Positions 1,118 to 32,691 of a DNA stretch of 48,451 bases are shown one piece after another. A program made the translations under genes and the position numbers. The notes below the pieces were generated by a model that had not been told where the DNA came from, did not search any database, and saw only the letters and a list, made by a program, of their open reading frames with translations. Numbering within the stretch: position 1 is the stretch's first letter; every line of letters begins with the position of its first letter. This DNA comes from Bdellovibrionota bacterium. GTDB taxonomy: Bacteria; Bdellovibrionota; UBA1018. The stretch covers positions 1 to 48,451 of the forward strand of contig DATDSK010000036.1 of assembly GCA_035291325.1 (NCBI GenBank), read 5' to 3'.

Positions 1118-1139
1118 GCCAGCAGTTTCGCCGTTGCCG

Positions 1140-10610: not shown

Positions 10611-11697
10611 TGCACGCCTCTATGACGGAACTCACCTCTTTTTCAGTCATCGTCGGGTCCATGGGCAAACTCAAAACGGTCCGATGAATTTCTTCAGTAA
10701 TGGGGAAATTCGACAATCTCAATTCTGAATAAGCGTTTTGGTGATGGGGTGGAATGGGGTAATGAATCAAGCTTCCGATGCCTCGAGCGGCAAGATGCTT
10801 CTGAAGACTCTCTCTGTCGGCGGTGCGGACAACAAATAAATGCCAGACGTGGCCATAGCGTTCCGGGCACCCCGGAAGCGTGATCACGGGATTCCGGATC
10901 TCCTTAAGATACCGGTCAGCAATGCTCCTTCTGATCTCATTTTCTGCATCCAGGCAACGAAGCTTTTCGACGAGAATCGCGGCCTGAAGTTCGTCCAGGC
11001 GACTATTCACACCTTTTAGTTCATTTACGTATTTCTGACGTGAACCATAGTTCCGTAAACATCTGACGGTATCGGCGAGAGTGTCATCGTTCGTGGTAAC
11101 AGCCCCTCCATCCCCCAGCGCCCCCAGGTTCTTGCCCGGATAAAAACTGAACCCTGCCGCGTCCCCAAGAGAGCCGATGCGCTGGCCCTGATAGAGTGCG
11201 CCGTGAGCCTGCGCACAATCTTCAAGAACGAACAACGAATGCTCTTTTTTCAACCGGACCAGAGCCGGGCTGAACGCGGCCTGTCCATAAAGATGAACAA
11301 CCAGAACCCCCTTTGTCCGGCTGGAAAGCCTTTCTTCAATTTTCGAAAAATCAAGATTATACGTTTTCGGATCCGGCTCAACGAGAACTGGGACAAGCCG
11401 ATTTGCGGAGATGGCGAGAATGCTCGCGATATAGGTATTCGCGGGAACGATGACCTCATCACCTTCTTTGATCCGGCCCAGTTCCATGTAGCCCCGTAGG
11501 GCGAGGACCAACGCATCAAGACCATTCGCGACGCCCAAAACGTGCTTGACCCCGCAATATGCCGCGAACTGCTTCTCGAAGCCCTCGAGTTCTTTACCGA
11601 GGATGTACCAACCCGAATCAAGAACACGTTCCATGGCCTTCAGAACAGCCGTCCGATGATTGGCATTCACCCTGCGTAGATTCAAAAAATCAATCAA
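10579..11697 (-). CDS. DegT/DnrJ/EryC1-family PLP sugar aminotransferase, FdtB/QdtB-like (dTDP-3-keto-6-deoxyhexose 3-aminotransferase)
   Basis: [49 protein letters not shown]...GLDALVLAL...CAQAHGA...[19 protein letters not shown] start overlaps the upstream TGA (TTGA), and no in-frame ATG preserves the conserved N-terminus. It lies directly downstream of the FdtC-FdtA fusion. Confidence 0.8.
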
Positions 11698-12632
11698 GTG
11701 CGAACGAGCTCCAGGAATTCGTCGTAATCACGGATGTAATCATTCCGATCGTACGGATCAGAGGCCAAGACCAACAATACGGCATCCGGGGTATACTTAT
11801 ATTGAACACCCCAAACCATTGGCGGAATATGAATGCCGGTCGAGAGATCATCCAGAAGAATCTCCTCCCGATTGCGTCCATCGTCCACCACTACAGAACA
11901 TGAACCTTTGACGCAAATCAAAAACTGATGGCATTTGCGATGGGCGTGCTCTCCGCGAACTTTTTTGCTGGGGACATCAAACACCATGAAGATTCGTTTC
12001 GGCTGGAAAGGTAACCCTTTGGCGTGCTCGAGAACAGCAAGGTTGCCTCTCATATCCTTTACTTCGGAAAGCCGGACCAGTCCCACGCCTTTAACGTTTG
12101 ATTCCCATTTCGAGGAGGCGGTCAGCGGAGCCGCGCTCGCTTTGATTTCGGGAGTTGTGGAATTGACATACCCCGAAACAACCGCAGGGTTGCCGACCAC
12201 GATCGCGTTCGGGGGCACATCACGCGTCACTACTGCGCCCGCTCCGATCATCGCATTCTTGCCTACCGTAATTCCGGGCAGAATGGTCGCATTGGCACCT
12301 ATTGATGCGCCCTTTTGAACGACAGTCTTAAGAAATTTTTCTGGATATTGCTTGCTGCGAGGAAACCGATCATTCGTAAAAGTAACGTTCGGGCCAATGA
12401 AGACATCATCTGCCAGAACTACGCCGTCCCAGAGCTGAACGCCGCATTTTACGGTAACGCGATTCCCGATCGAGACATCATTCTCGACAAAGACCCCGTC
12501 GCAGATATTACATTCGTCTCCGATTTTAGCCCCAGGGAGCACATGAGCAAAAGCCCAGATCCTGGTATTCTGCCCAATGCTCTTGGATTCTACGATCGCT
12601 TTTTCGTGAATAAATGTTCCAGGTAAACTCAT
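11694..12632 (-). CDS. Bifunctional WxcM-like protein: N-terminal left-handed beta-helix N-acetyltransferase (FdtC-like) fused to a C-terminal FdtA-like 3,4-ketoisomerase cupin
   Basis: The N-terminal half shows hexapeptide repeats ([31 protein letters not shown]...IGPNVTF...[25 protein letters not shown]). The C-terminal half reads [58 protein letters not shown], the WxcM C-terminal/FdtA cupin pattern. The start is trimmed to the ATG at 12632; the track start at 12731 would overlap the upstream gene. Confidence 0.75.
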
Positions 12633-12714
12633 CGTGAATTGCTCGCTTATCCGCCTATAACAACCGTCTAGGTCGGGAGAATGCAAGGGAAAACATTTTG
12701 CACCACACAATAGG

Positions 12715-13749
12715 CTAATGCGATCCGACATTCCGGGTTAATTTTAAGAGTTCCTCTTTCAAGGTCGTGCTCCAAATTAACGCCGCCTGCTTTGTCGGGT
12801 GCGCCGAATCGTAGAAATGGCTATTTTCGTTTAAATCTCTGAGGTCCATGTAACGAACCCTCGGATTCGTGAATAGCGGCTTTATTAGCTCGCTCTTCAA
12901 GCTCTCGTAGCTCTTCAAATACAAAGATGCACTCTGATGCCACTTCGGAATGGGGAGATCCAAGATAACGAGCTTCCCGCCATTCTTCTCAACGAGCTGC
13001 GCCAACTCAATGACCGCGTCGAACTGCTCTCTTCCGAGAGAGCCGTCGGGTGATCCCATGTACTCTCGCCAAAAAGCGAACGCCCTCTTCTTAAACTCGT
13101 CATCAACGGAACCCGAATACGGTATTCGTATCTGAATCCCTGACGCCAATACAAATAACCGGCGAAGCAAGGTATACGGGCCAAAAAGGCTCAGATAATG
13201 TAGGCGCAAATCCTGTACCCGGGTCGAAACCGGTAAGATCTGATGATCTTTAAATTCGTAACCACCGTATCGTTTCAGCTCAACCTGAATATCAGTTTGC
13301 TTGCCTGGACCCCAGCGCTTCGCATTTTCTACGAAATTGCCAAACCATATGCCCACAACAAGAGTCGTGTGTTTCCGCTCGTCAGAACTAAGTACCTCGT
13401 ACGTTAATTCCACGATCTGCCGAATCTGGGTGATGTTGGACGCGCCGACCGCAAGATTGTGCACCGAATATTCCGGCAAGGCAGGTTCTATGAGTTCCGG
13501 GCGAAAACCCTCTCGAACGTTCGATGAACCTAAAAGAACAATCTTCTTTCCGCCTGATTTCCTGATCAAATCACGACCCATGACTACGGCGACCGGCTCC
13601 GGGGCAAAAACGTTGTCCGTCAACTCGGTATCGAGACGATTCATTCTACTAACATGAATAGCCAAAGCCCCGGAAAAAACAATATGGATCGCCGCGAACG
13701 AAATCAGTACCCAAGCCAACTTTTCAAAAATGCGCCTGAGATTTTGCAT
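12715..13749 (-). CDS. Membrane-anchored DltD/SGNH-like acyl-transfer or esterase protein (MBOAT partner)
   Basis: It has an N-terminal TM ([21 protein letters not shown]), a candidate nucleophile block [15 protein letters not shown] and a C-terminal FYDSAHPT (D-x-x-H block). The ATG at 13749 shares one base with the MBOAT stop (TGATG). The track start at 13860 lies inside the MBOAT gene. Confidence 0.55.
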
Positions 13750-15203
13750 CAAAACGCCTTGTAAACAAACTCGACTGATCGTTTTCCCAAAACCAGTACT
13801 GTGACCAAAGCAAATAGCATCGAGCCAAGATAGAAATGCGCGAATCCCGGCGAAAAACAAAACGCCTGGACCGGCGCAAGCACCCGTTCACGCAAAGCAG
13901 TACTCAGGTACCGGCTGGCGGCGACAATTACTCCCGCCAGAAATGTCAGGAGCAGAAACGCCCCGATCACGCACAGAACACCCATAACGCTCAGAACCCT
14001 TGAGTACAGCTCGTCCGTACCCCAGACACAGACTAGAGCGATGCTAAAATAAGCAAAAGTTCCCCCTGTGCATAGGGCTTTATAATAATCATTTGCGCAA
14101 ATACGTTTGTAAAAAGTCTTACGCATCCTGGCCTGCATGTAATTCTGATAAAGCTTGTTTACGGCAACACCAATACCGAGAAATAAGCCATAAAACAGAA
14201 AGACCCCGGTACTTCCATGCCATAAACCCATCAAAACGAAAGTCACGAAAAACGCAATCACGCCCAATGAGGACCTCGCGGCAGCTCGCGGCGTCAAGTC
14301 TGTAAGCTTTCTTAACAACGGGTTGAACAAATAAGTTCGGAACCAATCCGAAAGCGTGATATGCCACCGCGACCAAAAATCCAAAAAATTAGAAGCCGCG
14401 AAAGGCGCATTGAAATTCTCCGGCAGCCTGAATCCCGCCAGGGTTCCAAACCCAACCACGACATCCATATATCCTCTGAAGTTGATATAAAGAAAAAGGG
14501 TGTAACTCGCGGACGCGAGAGCGAACGAAATCACCCAGGCGGGAGAACCCAAGGGAATACCAAGAGCTAAATTCGCAATATTTTGCGAATGGGAAAAAGG
14601 CATTTTCTGGATTAGGCTGCAGATAACAAGTAACTCCAGATAACCCATCAGAATACGGCCGAACGCTGTCAAAACTTCCTTGTCAGTCAATTCAAGCCGT
14701 CCTAGCCCGTCATCCTGCTTCGCGTAATCCTGATATCGCTGAATGGGGCCCGACAGGAAAGTCAGGAAAAGGCACATGTAATTGAAATATCGAATAATGG
14801 TAATCCGCTCATTTATCGCGCCTTGGGACACGTCCACCAAGAGATGAATCAACCTGAACAAGAAATACGAGAGGCCCACAACGGTGTACTCGGTCGGAAT
14901 CTGTGGAACCCGGTCAAGAATGGAATATTTTTTGAGAAAGACGAAAAAGAGAATCGTAGACACAAGTTGAAATGTGATCACAACACCGCGCGGCCTGCGC
15001 TGCGAAACCCAAACAAGCAGATACCCGTAGGTTAGAAACAGAAAGATGGCAATTCCGTGTGAAAACAACGGCAGAAAGGAAAGTATAAAAACCAGATTCA
15101 CCGCCGCTAGCGAAAAACCCTTCTGCCATTCCCGATTAGAAAGATTCAACAGGATAATGGCCCCGAAGACAAGCAAAAGGAAATCAAACGACGCAATTGC
15201 CAT
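13749..15203 (-). CDS. Membrane-bound O-acyltransferase (MBOAT; DltB/AlgI/PatA family)
   Basis: Polytopic, with the family signature FWSRWHITLSDWFRTYLFNPL and a later WHG. The track start at 15224 is TTG. The ATG at 15203 lies 1 nt after the ACP stop. Confidence 0.85.
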   Translation of the reverse strand: MAIASFDFLLLVFGAIILLNLSNREWQKGFSLAAVNLVFILSFLPLFSHGIAIFLFLTYGYLLVWVSQRRPRGVVITFQLVSTILFFVFLKKYSILDRVPQIPTEYTVVGLSYFLFRLIHLLVDVSQGAINERITIIRYFNYMCLFLTFLSGPIQRYQDYAKQDDGLGRLELTDKEVLTAFGRILMGYLELLVICSLIQKMPFSHSQNIANLALGIPLGSPAWVISFALASASYTLFLYINFRGYMDVVVGFGTLAGFRLPENFNAPFAASNFLDFWSRWHITLSDWFRTYLFNPLLRKLTDLTPRAAARSSLGVIAFFVTFVLMGLWHGSTGVFLFYGLFLGIGVAVNKLYQNYMQARMRKTFYKRICANDYYKALCTGGTFAYFSIALVCVWGTDELYSRVLSVMGVLCVIGAFLLLTFLAGVIVAASRYLSTALRERVLAPVQAFCFSPGFAHFYLGSMLFALVTVLVLGKRSVEFVYKAF

Positions 15204-15204
15204 T

Positions 15205-15456
15205 TTACTTCGTTGCGCGTTCAACCAGAATGTCGATCATCGCACCAACATCTTGAAGCCTTCCAACCTCCGCGGCGTTCAGCCTGAGCCCGAATTCTTT
15301 TTCGATCGTGACGACCAGGGAAATATGCATGATGGAATCCCAGCCATCGATATCAGCGGCCGTCGTCCTTTCGGACAAATTAATTGCGAAGTCGTCAAAA
15401 ACTTCGATAAAAATCTGATTTAGCCTTTGAAGAATGTGCTTCCTATCTCGATTCAT
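15205..15456 (-). CDS. Acyl/peptidyl carrier protein (DltC-like size and position)
   Basis: 83 aa. The phosphopantetheine-site motif is ADIDGWDSIMHISLVVTIEKEFG (DS Ser followed by helix II). It lies directly upstream of the MBOAT. Confidence 0.8.
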   Translation of the reverse strand: MNRDRKHILQRLNQIFIEVFDDFAINLSERTTAADIDGWDSIMHISLVVTIEKEFGLRLNAAEVGRLQDVGAMIDILVERATK

Positions 15457-15487: not shown

Positions 15488-17356
15488 TCAATACACCGGA
15501 ATCTGGCGGATAGAGGTATCCCGCATTTTGAGATCAGGACTCAGAGTTAAGACCCATCTCGTCGAAGAGGGCGACTGATCCAGCATCGAATAACCCAGCC
15601 TCTCGTAAAGCCCCGCGACAAGAGTGTTCTTCTTAGTCGGAACAAATACGCCAATGATGCGTTCCGCACCGAGATTTTTTGCGGACAAAATAATTTCGTT
15701 ATTCACGAATTCTTCCATTCCCCGGGACAACACACGGCAACTCATGACCCAGGTATCGACTAGGACGTCAACGCCGCTTTTGCGCAAAATCACGACAGAT
15801 ATCAGGCCATTGTCGCCGAACCGATCTCGCATTTTAAAGAAGCGGCAGACGACATTCGGGTCTTTTGAAAGCGCTTGGATATCAGCTTCAGAGTATCGAT
15901 TTCCGGTAAGATGAAATTGATTGCTCTTATTAATGAGTTGGGCCATGCGCGGGAGATTCAGCTGATCGACGTGACCAACACAAGCTTCCATTTCTAAGCT
16001 TTCGAGGAATTCAGATATATTTGAGAACTTCGTTTGGAAAGCTTTCCGCTCAGCATTATCTCGATACATCTGATTTCGTGCGCCATCCTCCTGAGAGAAG
16101 GTCACCGTTTCAAAGAGCAGTTCTCGATCCAAAGCACGAATATAAAGGGCGGGATCTTCGGGCAATTCGGGAACAGTCACCTCGGGAACCATTCGCCGGA
16201 CCAGGTCTCGTTCAACAGGATTATCATCCACGAAAACGAACGAATCCAACCCGAGTTCCAGAACTTGCGCAATATGCCTGATATTGTCAGCCTTGTTATC
16301 CCAATTAGCCCTGAAGACGGCAATATCATCCAGCCTCAACACCATATCGGGATGATTTTGAAACGGCAATCTTGCGGCATCCGGCTCGTTCTTCGAACAG
16401 ACGGCGAGCACGATCCCTCGGTTTTTCAGCTGCTTCAGATATCGCTGAAAAGCAACGAAAGCTTCGCCATCAGCGCCCGTCCCCAGACGTATCCCGCTGA
16501 CGCCGTCATCACCAATAACACCGCCCCAAAGGGTGTTATCCAAATCCAAAACAAGAACTTTTTTGGAGGCCCCCTTGATCGCCTGAATCAGCCGAGCCCC
16601 GGAAAACGCGACATGCCCAATCGCGTCGAACGAAAAAGCGTGTTTTGAATGATACCAATAGCGTTCGTCAAACCATCTGTTCTTTCCGTAAATTGCTGAA
16701 GCAAACTCCAGGTCAAAAACGGAAACCCCCGAAACCAAAGATCTTGCGAGACAGAGATTATATTCGCGCAAAGCATTCGCCCTGCTCCAAAGCACCGAAC
16801 TTTCGTAGTTTCCGAAGCTCCGCGAAAGAGGCAGATCAGCATTATTTTGAATAATAAATGCTGATGAATTGCGCTTCAGTGCATCCCAGATCGCAACTGA
16901 AGCCTCCACGGCCTGATCGATCTCTCTCCTGATACCGTCAATTGAAGTACCCGACGAAATCTCCAATCTTACATCCCTGTGATTCGTAAAAAGCCAGACC
17001 ACGGCGGGGTTAAAGGCATACAAATCGCTACACGGATCTAAAACCGTCTGATGGAGAGTGTCATAAGCCCCAACAAAAAATTGGCCCCTATACCCATTGA
17101 GAGCCAACCAGAAACAAAAAACATCGACGAATTGATCCACAGTGCTTGTAGGCAAAATCGCAATCGAGATCGGACGCAAATTAAGGTGTTCAGCATCGAT
17201 CGAGCGATAGACCTTCGCAAGCCGCTGCTGAACCGGAAATTCGAGCCCGGGGTCCGCCAGAGTCCGAAGTTTCGCGAATGCCTCGCGATGCCTGGACTCC
17301 TTCAGCAAACGTTGAACTTCTTTCAACCCCGATTTGAATTCTTCGCTTCCAATCAT
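15488..17356 (-). CDS. FkbH-like protein (HAD-superfamily subfamily IIIC phosphatase domain plus C-terminal acyltransferase-like domain)
   Basis: The central block reads KKVLVLDLDNTLWGGVIGDDGVSGIRLG...GIVLAVCSKNEPDAA...ANWDNKADNIRHIAQVLELGLDSFVFVDDNPVERD, which is the HAD-IIIC/FkbH signature. The C-terminal part (WVMSCRVLSRGMEEF) is typical of the family. The ATG overlaps the radical SAM stop (ATGA). Confidence 0.8.
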   Translation of the reverse strand: MIGSEEFKSGLKEVQRLLKESRHREAFAKLRTLADPGLEFPVQQRLAKVYRSIDAEHLNLRPISIAILPTSTVDQFVDVFCFWLALNGYRGQFFVGAYDTLHQTVLDPCSDLYAFNPAVVWLFTNHRDVRLEISSGTSIDGIRREIDQAVEASVAIWDALKRNSSAFIIQNNADLPLSRSFGNYESSVLWSRANALREYNLCLARSLVSGVSVFDLEFASAIYGKNRWFDERYWYHSKHAFSFDAIGHVAFSGARLIQAIKGASKKVLVLDLDNTLWGGVIGDDGVSGIRLGTGADGEAFVAFQRYLKQLKNRGIVLAVCSKNEPDAARLPFQNHPDMVLRLDDIAVFRANWDNKADNIRHIAQVLELGLDSFVFVDDNPVERDLVRRMVPEVTVPELPEDPALYIRALDRELLFETVTFSQEDGARNQMYRDNAERKAFQTKFSNISEFLESLEMEACVGHVDQLNLPRMAQLINKSNQFHLTGNRYSEADIQALSKDPNVVCRFFKMRDRFGDNGLISVVILRKSGVDVLVDTWVMSCRVLSRGMEEFVNNEIILSAKNLGAERIIGVFVPTKKNTLVAGLYERLGYSMLDQSPSSTRWVLTLSPDLKMRDTSIRQIPVY

Positions 17357-18984
17357 GCCGTCCCCCCCACGCCGTTTAACTTTGTAGCAAGGTTCCGAAA
17401 CCCGGTATGGTTGTCATCGAAAGCCCCCTGGATCTGCGATAACATGATACCGTTCAAATTGCGCTGAATCTCACTGATGTCCGCGAACGAAAAGCCCTGA
17501 TCCAGCATATACGCCAAAAACCAAAGGCTGGTGTCAGGATCAATAAAAACGCTGTTCTTAATTTCACTAAAAGCCGCGATCTTATGTTCGTAAGCACGCC
17601 TTGAGTCCATCGTGCGATGACTCCATTTGTTCCCCGCCCCGGCGAGACCAAATGCGTCCCGCTGTTCGTGAACAGGCGTGTTTTCGGAATAATAAAATTC
17701 CTTAAGAGAATAGAACTCAACTCCCGTGGAGTTAACAAAATCAATGTTAGATAAAACCGTCTCGTCCGTTTCACCTGGAAATCCCAACACGAAAGCGGCG
17801 AGCGACACGATACCATTATTCCTGAGGTGCCCAACTCCCCGGCGAAACGCGTCCCCGTTGGCGCGTTTATTCATGCTCTTCAGAACGGAATCGTTGGCCG
17901 ACTCGATTCCAAGATAAACGCAGCTACAACCAGAATCCTTCATCAAAGCGGCTGTCTCAGCATCGACATATTGAACACGCAAAAAAGAGGACCATTCAAA
18001 ATCGAACTTTGAAAGTAACCTGCAGATACTTCGAAAGCGCTCAGCCGGAACATTAAAAGTATCGTCCAAGAACACCAAACGACGCACGCCTGGAATTCTC
18101 GATATGCTTATCAGGTGTTTTTCGAGGACATCCAAGGACATCGTGTGCAAGCCCTTGCTTAATCGAGGGTAAGAGCAAAACGCACACGAGAAGGCGCACC
18201 CGGAAGCGCTCCTTAGCTGGAGCGTGGACCGGACAAAGGAGGTTAAATCGAGACGATCCCAATCGGCTGGCGCATCATCAAGCACGGGATCGTTCCAGCG
18301 GGTAACTGTTTTTTGAATTTGGGCGCTATCGTTTATCTTTTCACGGAAAAACAAATTATTCACTTCGGAAAGCGAGGCACCAGCATGCTTGCGAGCCAGA
18401 ACCAAATCGCGGAGGTCCGACTCGGAATTGAAGCTGTGAATGGCGTAATCGAGTCCCAATCTCAACATAGCCCGTTCCAAAGCCGCCGAATCATCCGACT
18501 TTACCTGTGCATTGACGAAAGCGCCGCCGATTACGATAGAAGCATCAGGGAACCGAGACTTGATTTTTTTGCTGATACGACCGACTTCCGAATAGTTCAG
18601 GTGAAACGTGCAGGATATGCCAATGAGCGGCGGCATGGAGGAGCGCTCATACATTTCGCAGAACAGATCCCACTCGGCGTCAAAATTATTAATGATGCCA
18701 GTTCCAATCCCGAACTGCCTCAAATAATTGGCAAGATGAACGCCTACAAAGCCCGGCAGGTTCCAGATATTTAAAAGCTCCCTCCTTTGGACAAAGTCGG
18801 CCTCATTCCAAAACACCCCTCGGCGAATCTTGTTCAGGACATCCAGATGCGAACGGAACCCGCCCTGGTAGTGGATCATCCTCGGATAAATCAGTTCAGA
18901 ACAAAGCGACAACCGGTCAAGCGGTATCTTAGAATACTCAGCATAGTTGACTACGTCAGACTGGGAAATGACGATCAAATCCAT
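17353..18984 (-). CDS. B12-binding-domain radical SAM enzyme (class B-like)
   Basis: 543 aa. The N-terminal ~200 aa are Rossmann-like (IGISCTFHLNYSEVGRISKKIKSRFPDASIVIGGAF). This is followed by RSASGCAFSCAFCSYP (CxxxCxxC), VFLDDTFN and YLGIESAND. Confidence 0.8.
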   Translation of the reverse strand: MDLIVISQSDVVNYAEYSKIPLDRLSLCSELIYPRMIHYQGGFRSHLDVLNKIRRGVFWNEADFVQRRELLNIWNLPGFVGVHLANYLRQFGIGTGIINNFDAEWDLFCEMYERSSMPPLIGISCTFHLNYSEVGRISKKIKSRFPDASIVIGGAFVNAQVKSDDSAALERAMLRLGLDYAIHSFNSESDLRDLVLARKHAGASLSEVNNLFFREKINDSAQIQKTVTRWNDPVLDDAPADWDRLDLTSFVRSTLQLRSASGCAFSCAFCSYPRLSKGLHTMSLDVLEKHLISISRIPGVRRLVFLDDTFNVPAERFRSICRLLSKFDFEWSSFLRVQYVDAETAALMKDSGCSCVYLGIESANDSVLKSMNKRANGDAFRRGVGHLRNNGIVSLAAFVLGFPGETDETVLSNIDFVNSTGVEFYSLKEFYYSENTPVHEQRDAFGLAGAGNKWSHRTMDSRRAYEHKIAAFSEIKNSVFIDPDTSLWFLAYMLDQGFSFADISEIQRNLNGIMLSQIQGAFDDNHTGFRNLATKLNGVGGTA

Positions 18985-19063
18985 AAAACTTGTAATCCGA
19001 TTTTTAAGTAGGAGGATACTACTTCAAATCCCGCCACCAAGATAGTGATTTTGGAACCAGGCT

Positions 19064-19513
19064 TTAATCTTCTTTGGCCAATTCCTGCGTGAATGCAACG
19101 TGAGCTTTTCCAGCAACGAGCTGCAAACCTGTAGCGATATTCTCAATCGCAACCTTGAAGATGACCGTCCGGGTAGCTAACGAGATCTGATCGACGGCTC
19201 CAGTCACCCTGACCTCATCGCCGCCGTAGGTGGGGGCAGAAAACCGTAAATTCAGTGACAAGAGCAGCGCGTTCTGACCGGGAAGATGTACCCCGATCAA
19301 TCTTGAGATCAGTGCGGTCAAGAGAGCCCCATGGGCGACCCGTTTTGCAAATCCCCTTTTTCGGGCAAAGGCACTATCCACATGCAATGAACTGCAATCA
19401 CCCGAAAGAGCAGTGAACTGGTCGATCATATCCTCGGTTATGCGCTGCTCGAACGAAAAACCCGCCCCCTGCTTCATGTCCTCTATAGTCAACGTCGACA
19501 AGCCGCATCCCAT
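19064..19513 (-). CDS. MaoC-like (R)-specific enoyl-thioester hydratase/dehydratase, hotdog fold
   Basis: ALSGDCSSLHVDSAFARKRGFAKRVAHGALL matches the SGDxNPxHxD...HG hydratase motif. 149 aa. The ATG directly follows the upstream TAA. Confidence 0.7.
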   Translation of the reverse strand: MGCGLSTLTIEDMKQGAGFSFEQRITEDMIDQFTALSGDCSSLHVDSAFARKRGFAKRVAHGALLTALISRLIGVHLPGQNALLLSLNLRFSAPTYGGDEVRVTGAVDQISLATRTVIFKVAIENIATGLQLVAGKAHVAFTQELAKED

Positions 19514-20491
19514 TTAGAAATCCCTTGGAAAGTTGTGAGGGTACTTGGCTTTGAGTTCAGACGGCAAAAGAGCAGTTTCGAGGCCTTCAATTGCCGCTCG
19601 CCCCATCGTCAGTACGGCTTGTTCTGTACTTCCCCCCATATGGCAGCTGCCGAGAAAGGTTCCGCTAGAAAACAACGAACACACTCCTGGCGGCTCTTCG
19701 CTAAAAACATCAAGAGCGGCACCGGCCAAATGGCCTGTTTCCAACATACTCGAAAGGGCAGTTTCGTCGATCAACCCCCCTCGGGCCGCATTAACCAATA
19801 GCGCGCCTTTTTTCATAAGGGACAATTTCGAAGCACTCAGCAAGTTACGGGTCGACGAATCGAAAGGAAGATGAATAGTAACAATGTCAGAGCGTCTGAG
19901 TAGGTCATCCAATGAAACAGGAGTCACCCCATAAAGGGAGTAGAAATCAGAATAATCGACGATATCAAATGCGAGTAGACGACAGCCGAATTTCTCGAGC
20001 AGAAGAGCAACTTCTTTACCAACATGCCCGCAACCGACGATACCGACAGTCAAGTCGCTGAGCTGACGGCCTCGAAGCTGACCCCATTTCCCTTTAAGCA
20101 GTCCGCAATGTGCCTCCGGCACCCGATGCGATAGCATGATCATGAAACCAACGGCAAGCTCGGCCACTGACCGGCGGTTTACCCCAGGCATCCAACCGAG
20201 CTTTACGCGACGTTCTTCCAAAGCACGCAAGTCAATCATGTCGAGCCCGACACCATATTTCGAAATCAAGCGAAGCCCGGGCAGCTGCTCGAGAACATCC
20301 GCACGAATCTCCTCCAGTCCCGTGATCGCGCGATCGCATCCCTTAAGAAAATTCACCAGGTCAGCACCAGAAAGAGACTTACCTAGGTCGTTAAAGCGGA
20401 TATTCGAGTATCGCGCAAGCAACTCCGCTTTCAAAACGGGGTGTTGGGAAAACGACCGTGACGCAACTCCGATTCTGATGTTGTCGCTCAT
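19514..20491 (-). CDS. D-isomer-specific 2-hydroxyacid dehydrogenase (SerA/GhrA-like), NAD-binding
   Basis: GIVGCGHVGKEVALLLEKFGCRLLAFD, NAARGGLIDETAL and CHMGGST. The track start at 20527 is GTG. The ATG at 20491 has GGAGGG 9 nt upstream and overlaps the upstream stop (ATGA). Confidence 0.8.
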   Translation of the reverse strand: MSDNIRIGVASRSFSQHPVLKAELLARYSNIRFNDLGKSLSGADLVNFLKGCDRAITGLEEIRADVLEQLPGLRLISKYGVGLDMIDLRALEERRVKLGWMPGVNRRSVAELAVGFMIMLSHRVPEAHCGLLKGKWGQLRGRQLSDLTVGIVGCGHVGKEVALLLEKFGCRLLAFDIVDYSDFYSLYGVTPVSLDDLLRRSDIVTIHLPFDSSTRNLLSASKLSLMKKGALLVNAARGGLIDETALSSMLETGHLAGAALDVFSEEPPGVCSLFSSGTFLGSCHMGGSTEQAVLTMGRAAIEGLETALLPSELKAKYPHNFPRDF

Positions 20492-21570
20492 TTTTTCAGG
20501 CCCTCCAGGTACTCGGTACAAGCACACTGAAACGCTTTATCCGGCTTGAGCCATTTCTTTTCAAATTTCCAACCACCAACCGGGATAATGACCCCAAGCC
20601 CCTGTTCGCTGTTTTTCTTATCGCTGCCGATTCCTGAAAGAAATTTCTCGGGGCAGATCGCCACATCTTTACTCATTTTGTAATTCTCGAATAATGTCGC
20701 GTGGCATTTGTCAAAAACGCGGCCCTTCTCAAACCCCAGACGAGCAGAAACCCAGTTCGCCATGTCCATGCCCATCGAAACGGCCACGCCATGTGGAATG
20801 GCAAATCCGGAGGAGCTCTCAATGGCATGTCCAAAACTATGACCGTAGTTCAAAAGGTTTCTTTGTCCCGTATCAAACTCATCCGCTTCGATGTAACTCT
20901 TCTTTAAGTTCAGGGACAACAGGATGAATCGCTGTAATAAAGGTCCTGAAGCAGTCAAAGCCTTGTAAGATGCCGCGATTTTTTCGAATTCTGACTCACC
21001 CTCGAGCGCGCAGATCTTAAGGATTTCGCCGAGACCGCTCCGGATCTCAGCTTCCTCGAGGGTCTTGAGAAACATCGGGTTAATGACGACCTCGGTCGGC
21101 GGATAATAACCGCCGACGATGTTCTTTATGCCACCAAAATTGATGGAGCTCTTCGATCCAATACAGGAATCTGCCTGCGCGAGCAGGGTTGTCGGATAAT
21201 AATTCCACTCAATACCTCTCATCAGAATGGAAGAAACAAAACAGGAAATATCCTGAATCACCCCGCCGCCGATGGAGAGTATCCTGTTCCCTCTCTTGAT
21301 GCGTTTTTCTAGTAGCTTCGCGACGTAATTAACGCAATTCTGAAGGGTTTTATTCCCCTCGTTTGCTTGAATGATAAGTACCGAATCATTTTCGAGAGTT
21401 TTCTTGAGCTGATCTCGATAAATTTCGGCAACTTTGGAATCGATGATAACGTGAAATCGTATTTTCCCCTGAAAAACCGACTCGGGGCTTTCATCCTGGT
21501 CAATTCTCACCCGGTAATCACCGCGATAAGACCTTACGAGAAATTGCTCAGACACGAGAAAATCCGCCAT
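20488..21570 (-). CDS. 3-dehydroquinate-synthase-like enzyme (sugar phosphate cyclase superfamily)
   Basis: ILSIGGGVIQDISCFV, YPTTLLAQADSCIGSKSSINF, RSGLGEILK and LLNYGHSFGHAIE (the DHQS LNxGHTxGHAxE metal motif), plus IPHGVAVSMGM. Confidence 0.75.
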   Translation of the reverse strand: MADFLVSEQFLVRSYRGDYRVRIDQDESPESVFQGKIRFHVIIDSKVAEIYRDQLKKTLENDSVLIIQANEGNKTLQNCVNYVAKLLEKRIKRGNRILSIGGGVIQDISCFVSSILMRGIEWNYYPTTLLAQADSCIGSKSSINFGGIKNIVGGYYPPTEVVINPMFLKTLEEAEIRSGLGEILKICALEGESEFEKIAASYKALTASGPLLQRFILLSLNLKKSYIEADEFDTGQRNLLNYGHSFGHAIESSSGFAIPHGVAVSMGMDMANWVSARLGFEKGRVFDKCHATLFENYKMSKDVAICPEKFLSGIGSDKKNSEQGLGVIIPVGGWKFEKKWLKPDKAFQCACTEYLEGLKK

Positions 21571-22333
21571 CAATCGCTACGCACTGCCCAGTTAGAAACG
21601 AGTTCTGTTCGCTCACCAACCAGGCAACAAGCTCCGCGATCTCCTCCGGTTTGGCGAGTCGACGAGACGGCACACCGGCTACCATTGTTTTAATCCCAGC
21701 GTCGCCGAGAACCCTTCGCGTAAGCTCCGTATCCACGAATCCAGGAGCCACGGTGTTCGCCAGAATACCGAACTGCGCGTATTCTGCAGAAAGCGCGACA
21801 GTCATGCCGTCGAGGCCGAACTTACTCGCGGAATAGGCCGCGCGGCGCTCCTTGCTGATTTTGCCGAAAATGGATCCTACGTTCACAATGCGACCCCAGC
21901 CACGTTCGCGCATGCCGGGCAGGACGGCCTTACACAGCTCAAATGGACCCATGAGATTGACCCGCAGGACGCGTTCAAAGTCATCACTGGGCAAAGACTC
22001 AAAAGACTCGACCCGATTAATCCCGGCATTGTTGACCAGAATGTCTATTTTCAAATCGAGGATTCCGGTCAAGAAGGCGGCAACTGAGCCTTTATCTAAA
22101 AAATCGAGTTGTAAATAACGCGTGACGGGACAGCCGTCGGCTTGCGCCGCGGTGCCGGTTGCAATCACCTCGGCCCCCCTGTCCATCAGCTCGCGGGCTA
22201 TGGCCAACCCGATCCCCCGAGTCGCTCCCGTTACAAGTGCTACACGCCCCACTAATTGACGTTCGTTTTTATGTGCTTGCACGTTTATTCGATTTTCCAG
22301 CTGGTTTAAGTGCTCGGAATATAGTGTGGCCAT
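21548..22333 (-). CDS. Short-chain dehydrogenase/reductase (FabG-like ketoreductase)
   Basis: GRVALVTGATRGIGLAIA, NNAGI and YSASKFGLDGM (YxxxK). The track start at 22384 is TTG; the first ATG is at 22333. A GTG at 22282 is also possible. Confidence 0.8.
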   Translation of the reverse strand: MATLYSEHLNQLENRINVQAHKNERQLVGRVALVTGATRGIGLAIARELMDRGAEVIATGTAAQADGCPVTRYLQLDFLDKGSVAAFLTGILDLKIDILVNNAGINRVESFESLPSDDFERVLRVNLMGPFELCKAVLPGMRERGWGRIVNVGSIFGKISKERRAAYSASKFGLDGMTVALSAEYAQFGILANTVAPGFVDTELTRRVLGDAGIKTMVAGVPSRRLAKPEEIAELVAWLVSEQNSFLTGQCVAIDGGFSRV

Positions 22334-22409
22334 CCGGCTTTGTCTAGCGGGTTCTTCCCGAGTGATTCCTGGAATTGGCGGCAATAACTTGCTATTCAGT
22401 TATCGAGCA
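22334..22409. promoter_or_regulatory. Divergent intergenic region: start of the ~15 kb minus-strand operon and of wzx
   Basis: Inferred from the divergent starts at 22333 (minus) and 22410 (plus). No confident -35/-10 hexamers. Confidence 0.35.
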
Positions 22410-23900
22410 ATGAAATCGAGCCAGTCGCTTACGAATAAAGTGAAGGAAGCCGGAAAGCACGCCCTGATCTATGGGTTTGGATCGGTTCTGCAATCCATGA
22501 TCGGCTTTGTATTCATCCCGCTGTATACGAAATACTACACGCCCGAGATCTACGGAACTTTTTCAATTCTGACAATTTGTGGAACTCTGGCCGCGACATT
22601 ATTCGGATTGGGTGCCCCATCCTCGCTGTCCCGATCCTATTTTGATTATTCAGCAGAAGAAGAGCGCGCGAAGGTTGCGAGCACCTCTTTGGCAATCGGC
22701 GCGGCGGGGTTTTGTTTATTGCTCCTGACCGGGATTTTCGCCTCACAACAGCTCTCGAATTCACTGTTTTCAACTGATCAATACTCAATTCACCTCCTTT
22801 TTACGATGACATCGTCTGGAATCGGAGTCCTCAATAACGTACTGAATGTACTCCTTCGTTTCAGAAGAAGATCAGTCGCGGTCATCTCGATCGGAGTTTC
22901 TTCCCTCCTGACTCAGTCCATTCTGATCTTTCTATTGCTCGTACATTTCAAATTAGGGATACTTGCGCCCATTCTCGGCGGCCTTATTGGCCAGTTTCTA
23001 CAGTTCACGCTACTTACGGTTGTCGCTTATCGATATCTTTCCCCTAGGCTTCTCAATTCGGAACTTCCAGTCCAACTGAAATTCGGAGCACAATCGGTTC
23101 TTGTCGGGCTCGGGATGTATTCGCTGGATTGGATCAACCGCTTTCTAATGAAATCTTATTGCTCCCTGCACGACGTAGGCGTTTATACGCTCGCCTACCA
23201 GATTGGGTCGATTATCAATCTCGGAATGATCCTCCCATTCTCGTTCATCTGGGCACCCATGCGAATGGAGTACATCAAGGACAATGACTCCCCTGTCTTG
23301 TTCCGCCTGATCACAAGCTATTATTTTTTTGCGGGTTACGGGATCATCTTGCTCGTTTCACTCTTCAGTCACGACCTTCTAGCACTGATCGTGCAACGAG
23401 ACGACTTCATGGAGTCCTACAAGCTGATCCCGTTCGTGATGATTGCCCTTCTCATCTATGGAAGCATTAACATCGTCGACATAGGGGTTTATTACGCACG
23501 CAAACAAGCCTATGTCATTCTAATCTTTTTTGGCACCGCCGCATTGAACGCGCTGCTCGCGAAGCTGCTCTTCCCTACTTGGGGATATCTTTCGGCAGGA
23601 CTCCTTCTCGTGTTTTCAAACGGGCTCATGGCGTTCGCTGTTGCCTGCATGTCGAACCGTTACCACCGGCTGTCATTTGAATGGAAACGTCTGGCCGGGC
23701 AAACGGCGCTTTTAGCAATAGCTCTTTCCACTCTCTTTTTCGAACTTCCGTCGGGGAAAACAGGTTTGTGGGTCAAATCTACAGCGGCATTCGGATATTT
23801 TTTCGCTTCGTATGTCTTTATTCTTTCGAACAAGGAAAAGCAGAAGCTCTATGGGCTAAAAAATTTTTTCAGAAATGCTGATCAACAAACGCCAAATTAG
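22410..23900 (+). CDS. wzx: Wzx-type polysaccharide flippase (MOP/PST family)
   Basis: About 496 aa with 12-14 TM segments. The N-terminus KHALIYGFGSVLQSMIGFVFIPLYTKYYTPEIYG is typical of polysaccharide biosynthesis (PST) proteins. The start is trimmed to the ATG at 22410. Confidence 0.75.
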   Translation: MKSSQSLTNKVKEAGKHALIYGFGSVLQSMIGFVFIPLYTKYYTPEIYGTFSILTICGTLAATLFGLGAPSSLSRSYFDYSAEEERAKVASTSLAIGAAGFCLLLLTGIFASQQLSNSLFSTDQYSIHLLFTMTSSGIGVLNNVLNVLLRFRRRSVAVISIGVSSLLTQSILIFLLLVHFKLGILAPILGGLIGQFLQFTLLTVVAYRYLSPRLLNSELPVQLKFGAQSVLVGLGMYSLDWINRFLMKSYCSLHDVGVYTLAYQIGSIINLGMILPFSFIWAPMRMEYIKDNDSPVLFRLITSYYFFAGYGIILLVSLFSHDLLALIVQRDDFMESYKLIPFVMIALLIYGSINIVDIGVYYARKQAYVILIFFGTAALNALLAKLLFPTWGYLSAGLLLVFSNGLMAFAVACMSNRYHRLSFEWKRLAGQTALLAIALSTLFFELPSGKTGLWVKSTAAFGYFFASYVFILSNKEKQKLYGLKNFFRNADQQTPN

Positions 23901-24019
23901 AATTCGGAAGAAGATCATTTCCCCGGTGGATTTGTCCTCCCAGGTATCGTAACTTTCAAAAAATGAATTTAAGATTGACCAAAAATTCAGTTAACAACCT
24001 TTGTGACAGATTTTCAGTC

Positions 24020-24412
24020 ATGAAAAAGAAGTACCTTTATGGGTTGCTTATTCTGGCTGCCGCGATTATTTTGCCGAACCTTTGGGGAATCGCGTTCTCT
24101 AGCGGCGACGACCCGTTCATTGCGGTTGATCGGTTTCGAAAGGGCGGTGTTTGGCCCGCCTCAGTTGGCCAAGCAACAGGGCAAGGACGCTTCTATTACG
24201 TCCTTCCATGGACTCTTTCTCAACTCCCATATCTCTGGGATTCGTTCGCGGTCGTAAATTCGATTAAGATCGTTTCGAAGTTTCTGATGTTTTCGGCATA
24301 CTTTCTTTTTATTCGGGAATTCTACGACGAACGGATGGCACTCCTTACCGGCTTCATCGGAGTCGCACTATTTGACACTATCGGGGGCTCCATTAAAGCA
24401 GCCAGCGATTGA
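24020..24412 (+). pseudogene. Probable 5' fragment of a polytopic membrane protein (possible GtrC/ArnT-type partner)
   Basis: MKKKYLYGLLILAAAIILPNLWG... has three hydrophobic segments and then ends. Its last ~12-30 codons are the reverse complement of the GT2 fragment coding sequence, so the natural C-terminus appears to be missing. Confidence 0.35.
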
Positions 24413-24552
24413 TCTCTGGAACCATCATTATAGACGTGAATCACAGCGTCTATGCCAAGAGACTTGAGCTCGCTGATCCATCCGCGCAAAACTCCAACAA
24501 TTGACTCCTGTTCGTTGTAAACCGGAATTACAACAGCAAGCTCCCTGTGCAT
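24322..24552 (-). pseudogene. GtrB/ArnC-like GT2 gene remnant (first ~50 codons only)
   Basis: MHRELAVVIPVYNEQESIVGVLRGWISELKSLGIDAVIHVYNDGSRDQS is a canonical GT2 N-terminus. The recognisable pattern stops near 24390-24400 and the frame closes after 76 codons. The ATG lies 4 nt after the upstream GT2 stop. Confidence 0.5.
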
Positions 24553-24556
24553 ACGG

Positions 24557-25474
24557 CTAGTGCCTCCGCGATTTCCGTAATTTAGCCCAAAGATCACCGA
24601 TAAAACACTCGAATGCCGCATACGGATTAGGAAATGCCGTTTTCGAAAACGCAACCAGCGCTTCCGACCATCTTTGATCCTTGATATAAAGCTTCATATC
24701 GGCATAATTTAACCGCGCTAGCGCGACTCTAACCTTTTCGAGTCGGGCCGTCCCCTTTCCCGCAAAACCGCTTAAAATTTCGCGTGACTCAGTTTGCGCC
24801 AGGTACTTCTGTTCACGTGTCGTATTCGATTGATGCACGCGGTAGGTCGTCAAAGGAGAATCAACGTACCCAATCGGAAAGGTTTCCGCGATTCTCAAAA
24901 AAAGATCATATTCTTCGGCTTGTTTATACTGCGGGTTAAAAGGACCGACACGACCAAGGACATCCTTTTTAATCAAAACACTGCTGCAAACAATGAAGTT
25001 TTCAAACAATAACTGTTCAAACACTCGGCCTGCATGCGGTCGTACGACTCCGGAATAGCGGCGCTTCGTCCCACCAACCTCGTTTGAGACCCACGCGTCG
25101 GTATAGACCATGCCTGTCTCTGAGGCAGACTCAAAGCAGGCCACCTGCTTTTCGAGCTTTTCAGGCGACCAGAGGTCGTCCTGGTCTAAAAGGGCAACGT
25201 ACATTCCCCGGGCATTCGCAATGCCGAGGTTTCTCGTTGCGGAAAGTCCTTCATTCTTTTTCTCAAAATGTCTAATTCGGGGATCGCTGATCTTCTCGAC
25301 GAGATTTCGAAGATAAGTGCTGGCTTCCGAACGCCGGGAACCGTCGTCAATGACGAGCGCCTCCCAATTTCGATAGGTCTGAGCTAAAACGGCCGACAGC
25401 GTTTCCTCAATGTACTGCTCCCCATTAAAATAAGGAATAATTATACTGATCAGGTCTCGTTCAGCCGGACTCAA
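24557..25474 (-). CDS. Glycosyltransferase family 2
   Basis: ISIIIPYFNGEQYIEETLSAVLAQTYRNWEALVIDDGS...ALLDQDDLW. The TTG start overlaps the upstream TGA (TTGA). Confidence 0.8.
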   Translation of the reverse strand: MSPAERDLISIIIPYFNGEQYIEETLSAVLAQTYRNWEALVIDDGSRRSEASTYLRNLVEKISDPRIRHFEKKNEGLSATRNLGIANARGMYVALLDQDDLWSPEKLEKQVACFESASETGMVYTDAWVSNEVGGTKRRYSGVVRPHAGRVFEQLLFENFIVCSSVLIKKDVLGRVGPFNPQYKQAEEYDLFLRIAETFPIGYVDSPLTTYRVHQSNTTREQKYLAQTESREILSGFAGKGTARLEKVRVALARLNYADMKLYIKDQRWSEALVAFSKTAFPNPYAAFECFIGDLWAKLRKSRRH

Positions 25475-26604
25475 TTCCAGAACCCCCTGATTTCGTCCAT
25501 CACCTGCTTCAACTCCGCATCTGTGAGACCGAAATACAGTGGAAGCGTCAGGATCTGCTTGGCAACTTCGCTCGTTACCGTGAGATCATCGGCCCGAAAG
25601 CCCTTGCAGATGGACTGGAGATGGTTCGGAATGTAATGCACTCCCGTGATGATTTGCTTGTTCTTGAGATATTCCATCAATTCATCGCGGCGCCCATCCG
25701 TGATTCGAACAATATAAGTGAAAAGGGCCAAGCCATCGTATTGCGTCTTCAGGATCTCTAGATGTCCGCGAAAAAACACATCCGAAAAAAAGCGATCATA
25801 TTGAGCTGCGATCTCGAGTCTGCGTGCCTTGAATTCCTCAATATGCGCGATCTGTTTGACCCCGATCGCGGCATTGATATTGCTCATGTGGTAACGATAA
25901 CCTTTGTCGGTGACATCATAGAACCAAGAACGCTCATTCCGGTAACGACTCCAGGTATCCTTATCAATCCCGAGTATTCTCTTTTTTCGCATACGCTCGG
26001 CCCAGCCAGCATTCGCGGTACAAACAGCCCCGCCCTCGCCCGTCGTGATGATCTTAATGGGGTCGAAGCTAAAGCAAGCCATATGACCGAAGGCCCCGAT
26101 CTTCTTTTTTTCGCCGGCGATCCGATACTCGCTGCCAAAAGCATGCGCGGCGTCTTCTATGACGACCAAGCCGTTCTTTTCGGCGAATTCGAGGAGTCCA
26201 GCCATGTCACAAGGCTGGCCGCGATAATGCACCGGCACGACAGCGCGGGTTTTTGAAGTTCGTTTCTTTTTTACGTCAGCCAGCGAAATGTTCAACGTAT
26301 CCCGTTCGACATCACAAAAAACTGGAGTTCCCCCCGCTTGCATGATGGCTTGAACAGTCGCGATAAATGTCAACGAAGGAACCAAGACTTCGTCGCCAGT
26401 CTTCAAATCCAGAACATCCAACGCAAGATGAAGAGCTGTAGTTCCGGTATTTGTCGCAATCACTTCCTTGCAGCCAATATATTCGGAGACTCTCGTTTCG
26501 AAGTCTTTGACCCAACTTCCCATTCCAAGCCAACCCGTCGCAAAAACCTTCTCGATTTCGTTCAACTCATCTTTTCCGATGAAAGGCTTCGATACCTGGA
26601 TCAT
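25471..26604 (-). CDS. DegT/DnrJ/EryC1-family PLP-dependent sugar aminotransferase
   Basis: KPFIGKDELNEIEKVFATGWLGMGSWVKDFE...TNTGTTALHLAL...EDAAHAFGS...FSFDPIKIITTGEGG (Lys in the FxxxK context). AGGAGA RBS upstream. Confidence 0.85.
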   Translation of the reverse strand: MIQVSKPFIGKDELNEIEKVFATGWLGMGSWVKDFETRVSEYIGCKEVIATNTGTTALHLALDVLDLKTGDEVLVPSLTFIATVQAIMQAGGTPVFCDVERDTLNISLADVKKKRTSKTRAVVPVHYRGQPCDMAGLLEFAEKNGLVVIEDAAHAFGSEYRIAGEKKKIGAFGHMACFSFDPIKIITTGEGGAVCTANAGWAERMRKKRILGIDKDTWSRYRNERSWFYDVTDKGYRYHMSNINAAIGVKQIAHIEEFKARRLEIAAQYDRFFSDVFFRGHLEILKTQYDGLALFTYIVRITDGRRDELMEYLKNKQIITGVHYIPNHLQSICKGFRADDLTVTSEVAKQILTLPLYFGLTDAELKQVMDEIRGFWN

Positions 26605-26613
26605 CCGCGTCTC

Positions 26614-31640: not shown

Positions 31641-31642
31641 AG

Positions 31643-32683: not shown

Positions 32684-32691
32684 GGAAATTT

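Follow-up and report, generated by a model that had tools for sequence, protein, structure and literature searches.

The window analysed here is a stretch of 48,451 nucleotides from a Bdellovibrionota bacterium (contig DATDSK010000036.1), and the subject of this work is the head of an operon at positions 17353–22333. Five open reading frames (ORFs) lie there on the minus strand, reading from 22333 down to 17353: a short-chain dehydrogenase/reductase (SDR), an enzyme resembling dehydroquinate synthase (DHQS), a D-isomer-specific 2-hydroxyacid dehydrogenase (2-HADH), a MaoC-type dehydratase and a radical S-adenosylmethionine (radical SAM) enzyme of predicted cobalamin type. They run into genes for an FkbH-type glyceryl loader, an acyl carrier protein (ACP) and a membrane-bound O-acyltransferase (MBOAT). 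The initial annotation of this region had proposed that all five enzymes remodel a carrier-bound glyceryl unit; its five genes, their domains, all five junctions it listed and the run into FkbH were confirmed by Pfam and by reading the sequence. The functional proposal stood for MaoC and the radical SAM enzyme and did not stand for the other three. From a comparison that drew on about 150 related loci in total, we consider it likely that positions 17353–22333 are the junction of two independent, portable polysaccharide modules with the chemistry set out below. Module A would be an acyl-donor cassette in which MaoC and the radical SAM enzyme work with FkbH, the ACP, the MBOAT and a membrane-anchored partner. 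Module B, to which the SDR, the DHQS-like enzyme and the 2-HADH (the trio) belong, would be the core of a nucleotide-sugar-type pathway and would not act on the ACP. What is observed directly is the gene content, the domains, the conservation of motifs and the co-occurrence statistics.

The SDR and DHQS-like frames overlap by 23 nt provided that the ATG at 21570 is the DHQS-like start. The DHQS-like and 2-HADH genes share an ATGA (20491–20488), the 2-HADH and MaoC genes abut as TAA-ATG (19516–19511), and the radical SAM and FkbH genes share another ATGA (17356–17353). For the gap between the MaoC and radical SAM genes (Table 1), the scan reported neither promoter-like nor terminator-like sites. 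Between 11000 and 24600 there were 18 terminator-like sites against 16.0 ± 4.0 in shuffled sequences, no excess, which is compatible with co-transcription; the five genes are co-linear with the FkbH operon and probably co-transcribed with it.

Two of the start codons probably differ from the longest frames. The database call for the DHQS-like gene (P0121) is 355 aa long, which places its start at GTG 21555 and shortens the overlap with the SDR to 8 nt, an overlap also present in the homologue from an Opitutaceae metagenome-assembled genome (MAG; locus L080); GTG 21555 is probably the start. Alignment of the SDR with an orthologue of 239 aa begins only at residue 25 of the SDR, which makes the in-frame GTG at 22282, and not the ATG at 22333, its probable start. 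A sigma-70-like site that matches at 10 of 12 positions (22346–22318, minus strand), the best of the region, overlaps the SDR ATG and lies upstream of GTG 22282, a position consistent with the shorter start. On the opposite strand the Wzx gene is alignable only from about 22398, leaving a short divergent promoter region.

Table 1. Coordinates, strand and main evidence for the genes of the operon and for related genes elsewhere in the window.
Feature	Position	Strand	Evidence or remark
SDR (FabG-like oxidoreductase)	21548–22333	−	First operon gene; Pfam adh_short, 1e-48
DHQS-like enzyme	20488–21570	−	Pfam DHQ_synthase and DHQS_C
2-HADH, phosphoglycerate-dehydrogenase-like	19514–20491	−	Pfam 2-Hacid_dh_C, 4e-46
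MaoC/(R)-hydratase-type hotdog dehydratase	19064–19513	−	Pfam MaoC, 4e-17
Intergenic gap MaoC/radical SAM, 79 nt	18985–19063	−	Sequence reading
Radical SAM enzyme, predicted cobalamin type (class B)	17353–18984	−	Pfam Radical_SAM, 3e-19
FkbH-type glyceryl loader, HAD-IIIC phosphatase and acyl-transfer domain	15488–17356	−	TIGR01686
ACP	15205–15456	−	Pfam PP-binding match
DltB-like MBOAT	13749–15224	−	Pfam MBOAT, 1e-14
Membrane-anchored 381-aa MBOAT partner	12715–13860	−	No family match; homologues adjoin MBOAT elsewhere
Hexapeptide-repeat acyltransferase (NeuD/PglB/VioB-like) fused to C-terminal FdtA/WxcM isomerase domain	11694–12731	−	Single ORF
GT2, DegT aminotransferase, ~420-aa weak GT-like protein, sulfotransferase	24557–28892	−	Pfam
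HpcH/HpaI aldolase	29109–29879	+	Pfam/NCBIfam
KdsB-like cytidylyltransferase	29876–30667	+	Pfam/NCBIfam
Methyltransferase	30654–31640	+	Pfam/NCBIfam
GFO/IDH/MocA oxidoreductase	31580–32683	+	Pfam/NCBIfam
GmhA-like SIS isomerase	32692–33315	+	Pfam/NCBIfam

Neighbourhoods of the radical SAM enzyme

The radical SAM enzyme has several hundred relatives, the best of them at 47–58% identity. A scan of one genome per species yielded 79 loci anchored on this gene, which were queried by tblastn with all operon proteins of the window. Taking at least 42% identity as the mark of an orthologous radical SAM enzyme left 69 loci, each from the genome of another species, and 44 of these extended at least 5 kb to both sides. 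The hosts of the 79 loci include Omnitrophota, Desulfobacterota, Rhodospirillales, Acetobacteraceae, Planctomycetota, Bacteroidota, Nitrospinota, Elusimicrobia, Coxiellaceae and Prochlorococcus, among others; at least the first eight of these groups and Prochlorococcus are represented among the 69 as well. Cultivable carriers of MaoC and radical SAM genes include Paramagnetospirillum marisnigri and Falsiroseomonas stagni.

In the 44 full-flank loci the partners of the radical SAM gene were counted: MaoC was found in 42, FkbH in 41, the ACP in 40 and the MBOAT in 32, with a homologue of the 381-aa partner adjoining the MBOAT in 12. By tblastn the SDR, the DHQS-like enzyme and the 2-HADH were each found in none of the 44. 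The MaoC gene lies directly upstream of the radical SAM gene at 51 of 68 loci; the order of the genes varies between loci, and the four genes remain together. Unbiased clustering of the neighbouring ORFs brought out no further conserved family and no reductase of any family. Comparing operons across genomes, as the initial annotation had suggested, thus upheld one part of its grouping, with MaoC and the radical SAM enzyme accompanying FkbH and the ACP in dozens of genomes of many phyla, and detached the other part, the trio.

Some of the loci depart from the common pattern. Several module loci without an MBOAT carry a gene for a protein of about 350 aa after the ACP (L005, 4479–5582; L013, 13749–14810; L049, 13715–14773; L064, 13760–14857), and in L006, also MBOAT-less, a KASIII-like enzyme occupies this place (13390–14442). 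Weak, sub-threshold GNAT matches were seen after the ACP in L005 and L013 and none in L064. These genes suggest alternative cytoplasmic acyltransferases, possibly for N-acylation of amino sugars. In a Rhodospirillales MAG (L026) an ADP-forming acyl-CoA synthetase (5513–7735; CoA_binding_2, Succ_CoA_lig and ATP-grasp_5 domains) is encoded just upstream of MaoC-rSAM-MBOAT (rSAM being the radical SAM gene), and neither FkbH nor the ACP was found within 10 kb; L025, L030 and L034 are FkbH-less as well. This arrangement suggests that MaoC and the radical SAM enzyme can also work on free acids that have been loaded as CoA thioesters. Lastly, a second radical SAM clade at 32–33% identity (L072–L079) has FkbH, ACP or MaoC homologues nearby in L075, L078 and L079, and the partnership with FkbH may be older than the orthologous group analysed.

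Proteins and proposed chemistry of the acyl-donor module

The MaoC protein scores 62.4 bits against its Pfam model (cut-off 27) and has PhaJ-type (R)-hydratase structures as its best matches in the PDB. It shows the hydratase-2 makeup, a hotdog domain whose catalytic pair, Asp39 and His44, is shared by 70 of 70 orthologues; where the classical motif has Asn-Pro, this protein has Ser-Ser. The FkbH protein exceeds the TIGR01686 cut-off twofold (292 against 146.65 bits) and its translation contains the LDLDNT (HAD DxDxT) and WVMSCRV (C-terminal Cys) motifs. Its sole solved relative is an uncharacterised protein of Bacteroides fragilis. The ACP has the WDSI serine motif. The MBOAT reaches 54.9 bits in Pfam (cut-off 27), and its best NCBIfam match is DltB (TIGR04091), at 181 bits against a cut-off of 375. 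Its 381-aa partner matched nothing in Pfam, NCBIfam or the PDB and showed no similarity to the AlgX-like gene at the equivalent place in L088. The blocks 'GSSNVREGF' and 'YDSAHPT' in the partner resemble SGNH/DltD-type blocks, so that an SGNH/DltD-like role is a guess from motifs only.

The radical SAM enzyme aligns over residues 35–512 with the model of the PhpK/BcpD P-methyltransferases (TIGR04479; 383.6 bits, 1e-114, below the cut-off of 600) and only at 3e-13 with that of the AprD4 family; by these scores it belongs to a clade related to PhpK/BcpD along its full length without being a member. A true PhpK P-methyltransferase was considered and rejected on this sub-cut-off score and because no phosphonate-pathway family (e.g. 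PEP mutase) was seen among the conserved neighbours. The CxxxCxxC motif that holds the [4Fe-4S] cluster of class B enzymes is present, with Cys263, Cys267 and Cys270 invariant in 16 sequences. The AlphaFold2 model (mean pLDDT 90) has TsrM, CysS, MgmA, AprD4, TokK and OxsB as its best structural matches, with E values of 1e-16 to 1e-20 against the full-length cobalamin enzymes TsrM, CysS, TokK and OxsB. CysS and TokK have been solved with pantetheine-linked substrates, which gives a precedent for methylating a thioester-tethered unit. We describe the protein as a putative C-methyltransferase.

For module A, as for module B further on, we infer every chemical step and the product. FkbH would load a glyceryl unit from 1,3-bisphosphoglycerate onto the ACP, MaoC would remove the 3-OH to give an enol or pyruvoyl thioester, and the cobalamin radical SAM enzyme would methylate C3 ahead of the dehydration or following it. 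In the first case it would act on a carbinol carbon, where Fom3 and GenK also methylate, and in the second on a 2-oxoacyl thioester. The product would be a C4 thioester of the 2-oxo- or 2,3-dihydroxy-butyryl type, whose acyl group the DltB-like MBOAT would move across the membrane to the glycan, Dlt-style. No reductase is conserved with the module. The loading step agrees with what is described for FkbH domains, which load glycerate (PMC10143770), and FkbH-type loading modules have been modelled as giving D-lactate-ACP from 1,3-bisphosphoglycerate (PMC7901079).

The trio and its usual partner genes

The DHQS-like protein belongs by score to TIGR04425 (418.1 bits against a cut-off of 400, profile positions 1–346 of 348), which NCBIfam names 'AroB-related putative sugar phosphate phospholyase (cyclizing)' and grades as a 'hypothetical equivalog' only. 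Against genuine aroB (TIGR01357) it reaches 254.5 bits, short of the cut-off of 305. Its nearest solved structures are true DHQSs, and in alignment with five of these it retains DSxxGxK, KN, ExxK, K...R..LN.GHxFGHA, HG and DKK, all invariant in the alignment of its own family. In DHQS structures these motifs bind zinc, phosphate and carboxylate, a lysine and an arginine holding the carboxylate of 3-deoxy-D-arabino-heptulosonate 7-phosphate (DAHP). With the motifs all retained, the substrate is probably a DAHP-like 3-deoxy-ulosonate phosphate.

Of the two flanking dehydrogenases, the SDR has FabG as its best NCBIfam match and stays below both FabG cut-offs (NF009466, 202 against 222 bits; TIGR01830, 193 against 298); it is 51% identical to the SDR encoded directly upstream of the DHQS-like gene of L080. 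The 2-HADH exceeds the cut-off for both of its Pfam domains (157 and 71 bits) and is 50% identical to its counterpart in a Chlamydiota MAG (L084), whose gene comes immediately after that of the DHQS-like enzyme; 'AARGG', 'EEPP' and 'CHMGG', the blocks with the catalytic Arg, Glu and His of the family, are aligned and conserved between the two.

A second set of loci was anchored on the DHQS-like enzyme. Three annotated contexts, the Opitutaceae MAG (L080), a 4.4-Mb genome (L082) and the Chlamydiota MAG (L084), and 80 loci added by a metagenome scan are among the total of 85, in which trio orthologues occur at 41–60% identity (44–60% for the SDR). Where there was enough flank, an SDR orthologue lay directly upstream of the DHQS-like gene at 57 of 59 loci and a 2-HADH orthologue directly downstream at 44 of 60. 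Further upstream, the 31 trio loci with at least 6 kb on that side carried a GFO gene in 29 cases, a KdsB-like gene in 25, HpcH in 17, SIS in 15 and a methyltransferase in 8. In L080, L082 and L084 the genes are contiguous, in the order HpcH-(MT)-CTP_transf_3-GFO-(SIS)-SDR-DHQS-HADH (MT, methyltransferase), and FkbH, ACP, MaoC, radical SAM and MBOAT genes were not found in these three contexts. In the whole set, FkbH, the ACP and MaoC were present in 1 of the 31 loci with upstream flank and in 1 of the 29 with at least 6 kb downstream, in both cases L088, and the radical SAM gene in none of either group. The initial annotation had named, as an outcome that would refute it, orthologous clusters that always lack the ACP and MBOAT genes; most radical SAM loci keep these genes, and at 84 of the 85 trio loci the flanks at hand, up to 10 kb long, contain no FkbH, ACP or MaoC.

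The usual partners of the trio are all present in the window, about 7 kb from it, as a plus-strand cassette at 29109–33315 (Table 1). Its cytidylyltransferase passes two KdsB subfamily models (NF009905, 261 against 255 bits; NF003952, 235 against 193) and falls short of the KdsB equivalog TIGR00466 (141.5 against 155.2). A tblastn comparison of the window with L080 (JAQTYQ010000002.1) matched 14 of 16 genes at 29–58% identity, most at 33–58%: Wzx, HpcH, the methyltransferase, the CMP-transferase, GFO, SDR, DHQS, HADH, SIS, a sulfotransferase, a protein of about 400 aa, two DegT aminotransferases and a GT2. Thirteen of these fall within 21548–33315 of the window, from the SDR (21551) to SIS (33300), and they include four minus-strand genes between trio and cassette (24557–28892), which are syntenic with the Opitutaceae cluster gene for gene at 29–50% identity. 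Relative to L080 the window is inverted and split, with SDR-DHQS-HADH at the head of the FkbH operon. It holds only one such set and a single copy of each partner gene, and without the trio the plus-strand cassette would be incomplete; the simplest reading is that a rearrangement moved the trio to the head of the FkbH operon.

The remaining genes of module B would thus be the HpcH aldolase, the KdsB-like CMP-transferase, the methyltransferase, the GFO/IDH/MocA oxidoreductase and the GmhA-like isomerase, and its logic would be like that of 3-deoxy-D-manno-octulosonate (Kdo) synthesis, with isomerase, aldolase and CMP-transferase. The DHQS-like enzyme would take the terminal phosphate off a DAHP-like 3-deoxy-ulosonate phosphate by oxidation and elimination, replacing a phosphatase step, while adjustment of the keto groups would be the task of the three oxidoreductases. 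The pathway would end in a deoxy-ulosonic or cyclitol-carboxylic acid residue activated with CMP; both a terminal-deoxy ulosonic acid, open or as a pyranose, and a cyclised acid resembling dehydroquinate would fit. A role for the trio as supplier of the FkbH substrate was considered and rejected, as FkbH modules elsewhere work without it.

Other features of these loci may be recorded here. A DUF386 (YhcH/EbgC-like) gene lies inside the trio cassette of L080 (10066–10539), of a family linked to sialic-acid operons. In L084 the cassette adjoins a gene for a PF27859 'LIC12162' protein (1832–3721), a family named for a gene of the Leptospira rfb region. Further downstream in the window, on the strand of the FkbH operon, follow a DegT aminotransferase, Wzy, glycosyltransferases and a flippase. 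The G+C content is 54–59% at positions 1–11000 and 44–53% across the polysaccharide locus (11000–46000), and an ORF like a helix-turn-helix transposase stands near the far end of the window (46217–46816), a pattern frequent in horizontally exchanged glycan loci.

Relation of the two modules and comparison with known systems

Several observations weigh against the separation into two modules or against the chemistry assigned to them. The trio abuts MaoC translationally, with no terminator between them, and in this genome the SDR or the 2-HADH may conceivably act directly on a 2-oxoacyl-ACP. The B12-binding Pfam match of the radical SAM enzyme is under its cut-off (29.4 against 32.1 bits), its score is below the PhpK cut-off (384 against 600 bits), and its structural neighbours include the non-methylating diol dehydratase AprD4. 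About half of the trio loci lack HpcH and SIS, so that the Kdo-like scheme is not universal, and the enzymes of both modules are all uncharacterised. Moreover, L065 and L088 also interleave the two gene sets in one cluster, which hints at a functional link between them. L065 has the order HpcH, MaoC-FkbH-ACP-rSAM, KdsB-MT-GFO-SIS-HADH-SDR-DHQS, and L088 the order KdsB-GFO-ACP-MaoC-FkbH-AlgX-like-MBOAT-MT-SDR-DHQS-HADH, without a radical SAM gene.

Taken at its strongest, this link would mean that both modules are new glycan chemistry on the same residue and that the interleaving in the window, L065 and L088 reflects a functional partnership. Module B would then make a CMP-activated C7/C8 terminal-deoxy ulosonic acid or a dehydroquinate-derived carbocyclic acid, its DHQS paralogue eliminating phosphate in place of a phosphatase, and module A, through its Dlt-like MBOAT, would esterify the polymer with a 2-oxo- or hydroxy-butyryl group derived from glycerate and C-methylated with cobalamin. 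We regard this extended proposal as possible and rather doubtful. The sugar genes of L065 are 53–70% identical to those of the window, its radical SAM enzyme is only 36% identical and its gene order is different, from which the combination of modules probably arose more than once. The interleaving is no proof of an action of the trio on the ACP and may reflect no more than decoration of the module B sugar by the acyl group. The presence of MaoC, FkbH, ACP and MBOAT without a radical SAM gene in L088 is consistent with methylation as an add-on to a dehydration core.

A different doubt concerns the radical SAM enzyme, which might not be a methyltransferase at all and might instead carry out an AprD4-like radical 1,2-diol dehydration or rearrangement of glyceryl-ACP, with MaoC acting on a different intermediate. 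Glyceryl-ACP is indeed a vicinal diol, AprD4 (6fd2, 1.8e-13) is the sole significant sequence match among the structures of B12-domain radical SAM enzymes and ranks 9–10 by fold against the model, and the sub-threshold B12-binding match also fits. However, the PhpK family is matched over the full length at 1e-114 and the AprD4 family only at 3e-13, the cobalamin-bound methylases TsrM, CysS and MgmA lead the fold matches, and a separate dehydratase, MaoC, is already strictly conserved beside the enzyme. We consider this quite unlikely.

The proposal closest to the initial annotation keeps all five enzymes on glyceryl-ACP, MaoC dehydrating, the SDR and/or 2-HADH reducing a pyruvoyl to a lactyl thioester, the radical SAM enzyme methylating and the DHQS-like enzyme serving as accessory redox enzyme. 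In its favour, the genes run co-linearly and their stop and start codons overlap or abut, SDRs of the FabG kind use acyl-ACPs as substrates and this SDR has its best NCBIfam match in FabG, L065 and L088 mix both gene sets, and the loading module of bryostatin (BryA) reaches a lactyl starter through dehydratase (DH) and ketoreductase (KR) domains. A precedent for lactyl starter units from DH and KR with FkbH and ACP is also on record (PMC7901079). Against this, FkbH, ACP and MaoC are missing from the available flanks of 84 of 85 trio loci, no full-flank radical SAM/FkbH locus (0 of 44) has the trio or another conserved reductase, the usual partners of the trio elsewhere in the window would be left without it, and no role falls to the DHQS-like enzyme despite its complete DAHP-type active site. 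With the trio found apart from the FkbH/ACP loci, the step from pyruvoyl to lactyl thioester loses its comparative support, and we judge the five-enzyme scheme improbable. Its variant, in which part of the set would N-acylate the amino sugar of the FdtA/B genes, finds less favour here, given the MBOAT that follows the ACP. The adjacent amino-sugar pathway has an N-acyltransferase of its own in the fusion of a hexapeptide acyltransferase with FdtA/WxcM.

That the DHQS-like protein is the shikimate-pathway aroB between unrelated housekeeping dehydrogenases is very improbable, and was rejected on score and context: true DHQSs are its nearest solved structures and all catalytic motifs are kept, but its score falls short of the aroB equivalog cut-off and exceeds that of TIGR04425, and its SDR/HADH neighbourhood in polysaccharide loci is fixed over 85 loci.

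Full-text searches of the literature turned up general statements about loading by FkbH and no paper that describes either cassette. If the two-module reading is right, MaoC-rSAM-FkbH-ACP(-MBOAT) would be a widespread and unstudied way to add a non-acetyl acyl group to cell-surface polysaccharides, and the known range of class B radical SAM methylation would grow to include a short acyl unit on an ACP that supplies a glycan. A second unstudied pathway, a CMP-sugar-acid route using a DHQS paralogue, would have the SDR-DHQS-HADH trio as its marker. Separating the modules would also avert a wrong reconstitution design, the ACP pairing with MaoC and the radical SAM enzyme and not with the SDR and 2-HADH, and each product would have a clear, testable gene set.

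Among known systems, module A is most readily compared with the Dlt pathway (DltA-DltC-DltB-DltD). In both, a carrier protein gene adjoins that of a DltB-like MBOAT, a gene for a membrane-anchored partner follows, and a thioester-bound acyl group is exported to an extracytoplasmic polymer, as the genes would indicate for module A. The loader, however, is FkbH, with glycerate from a glycolytic intermediate, and not an adenylating DltA; MaoC and a B12 radical SAM enzyme are interposed; the MBOAT, at 181 against 375 bits, is no DltB orthologue, and its partner has no detectable similarity to DltD. With FkbH loading in polyketide synthases (PKS) and nonribosomal peptide synthetases (methoxymalonyl-ACP, tetronates, aeruginosin AerB and the bryostatin-type module) the module shares the FkbH motifs, the adjacent ACP and an available dehydratase for passing from glyceryl to pyruvoyl or lactyl. 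Its proteins are nevertheless free-standing and encoded within a glycan locus, the part of a PKS DH domain would fall to a MaoC hotdog, the module lacks a conserved reductase, a cobalamin radical SAM enzyme is added, and an MBOAT takes the place of the ketosynthase or condensation domain. The radical SAM enzyme itself resembles the class B methyltransferases (PhpK/BcpD, CysS, TokK/ThnK, TsrM) in its CxxxCxxC motif, full-length PhpK-family similarity and predicted fold, and differs in lacking a phosphonate context and in scoring below the PhpK cut-off. To our knowledge, a C3 hydroxy- or oxo-acyl-ACP has not been described as a substrate of a class B enzyme.

For module B, AroB and the sugar-phosphate cyclases (DOIS, EEVS, DDGS) share with the DHQS-like protein the two-domain DHQS fold and the metal, phosphate and carboxylate motifs; unlike AroB, it is not aroB by score and sits between an SDR and a 2-HADH in polysaccharide loci. 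Module B resembles the CMP-Kdo pathway (KdsD, KdsA, KdsC, KdsB) in the clustering of an isomerase of the SIS type, an aldolase that adds C3 and a CMP-transferase like KdsB. In module B, however, the aldolase is of the pyruvate-dependent HpcH/HpaI type in place of the phosphoenolpyruvate-dependent KdsA, a DHQS-like phospho-lyase stands where no KdsC-type phosphatase was seen among the conserved neighbours, and three oxidoreductases are added, often together with a methyltransferase and a DegT aminotransferase.

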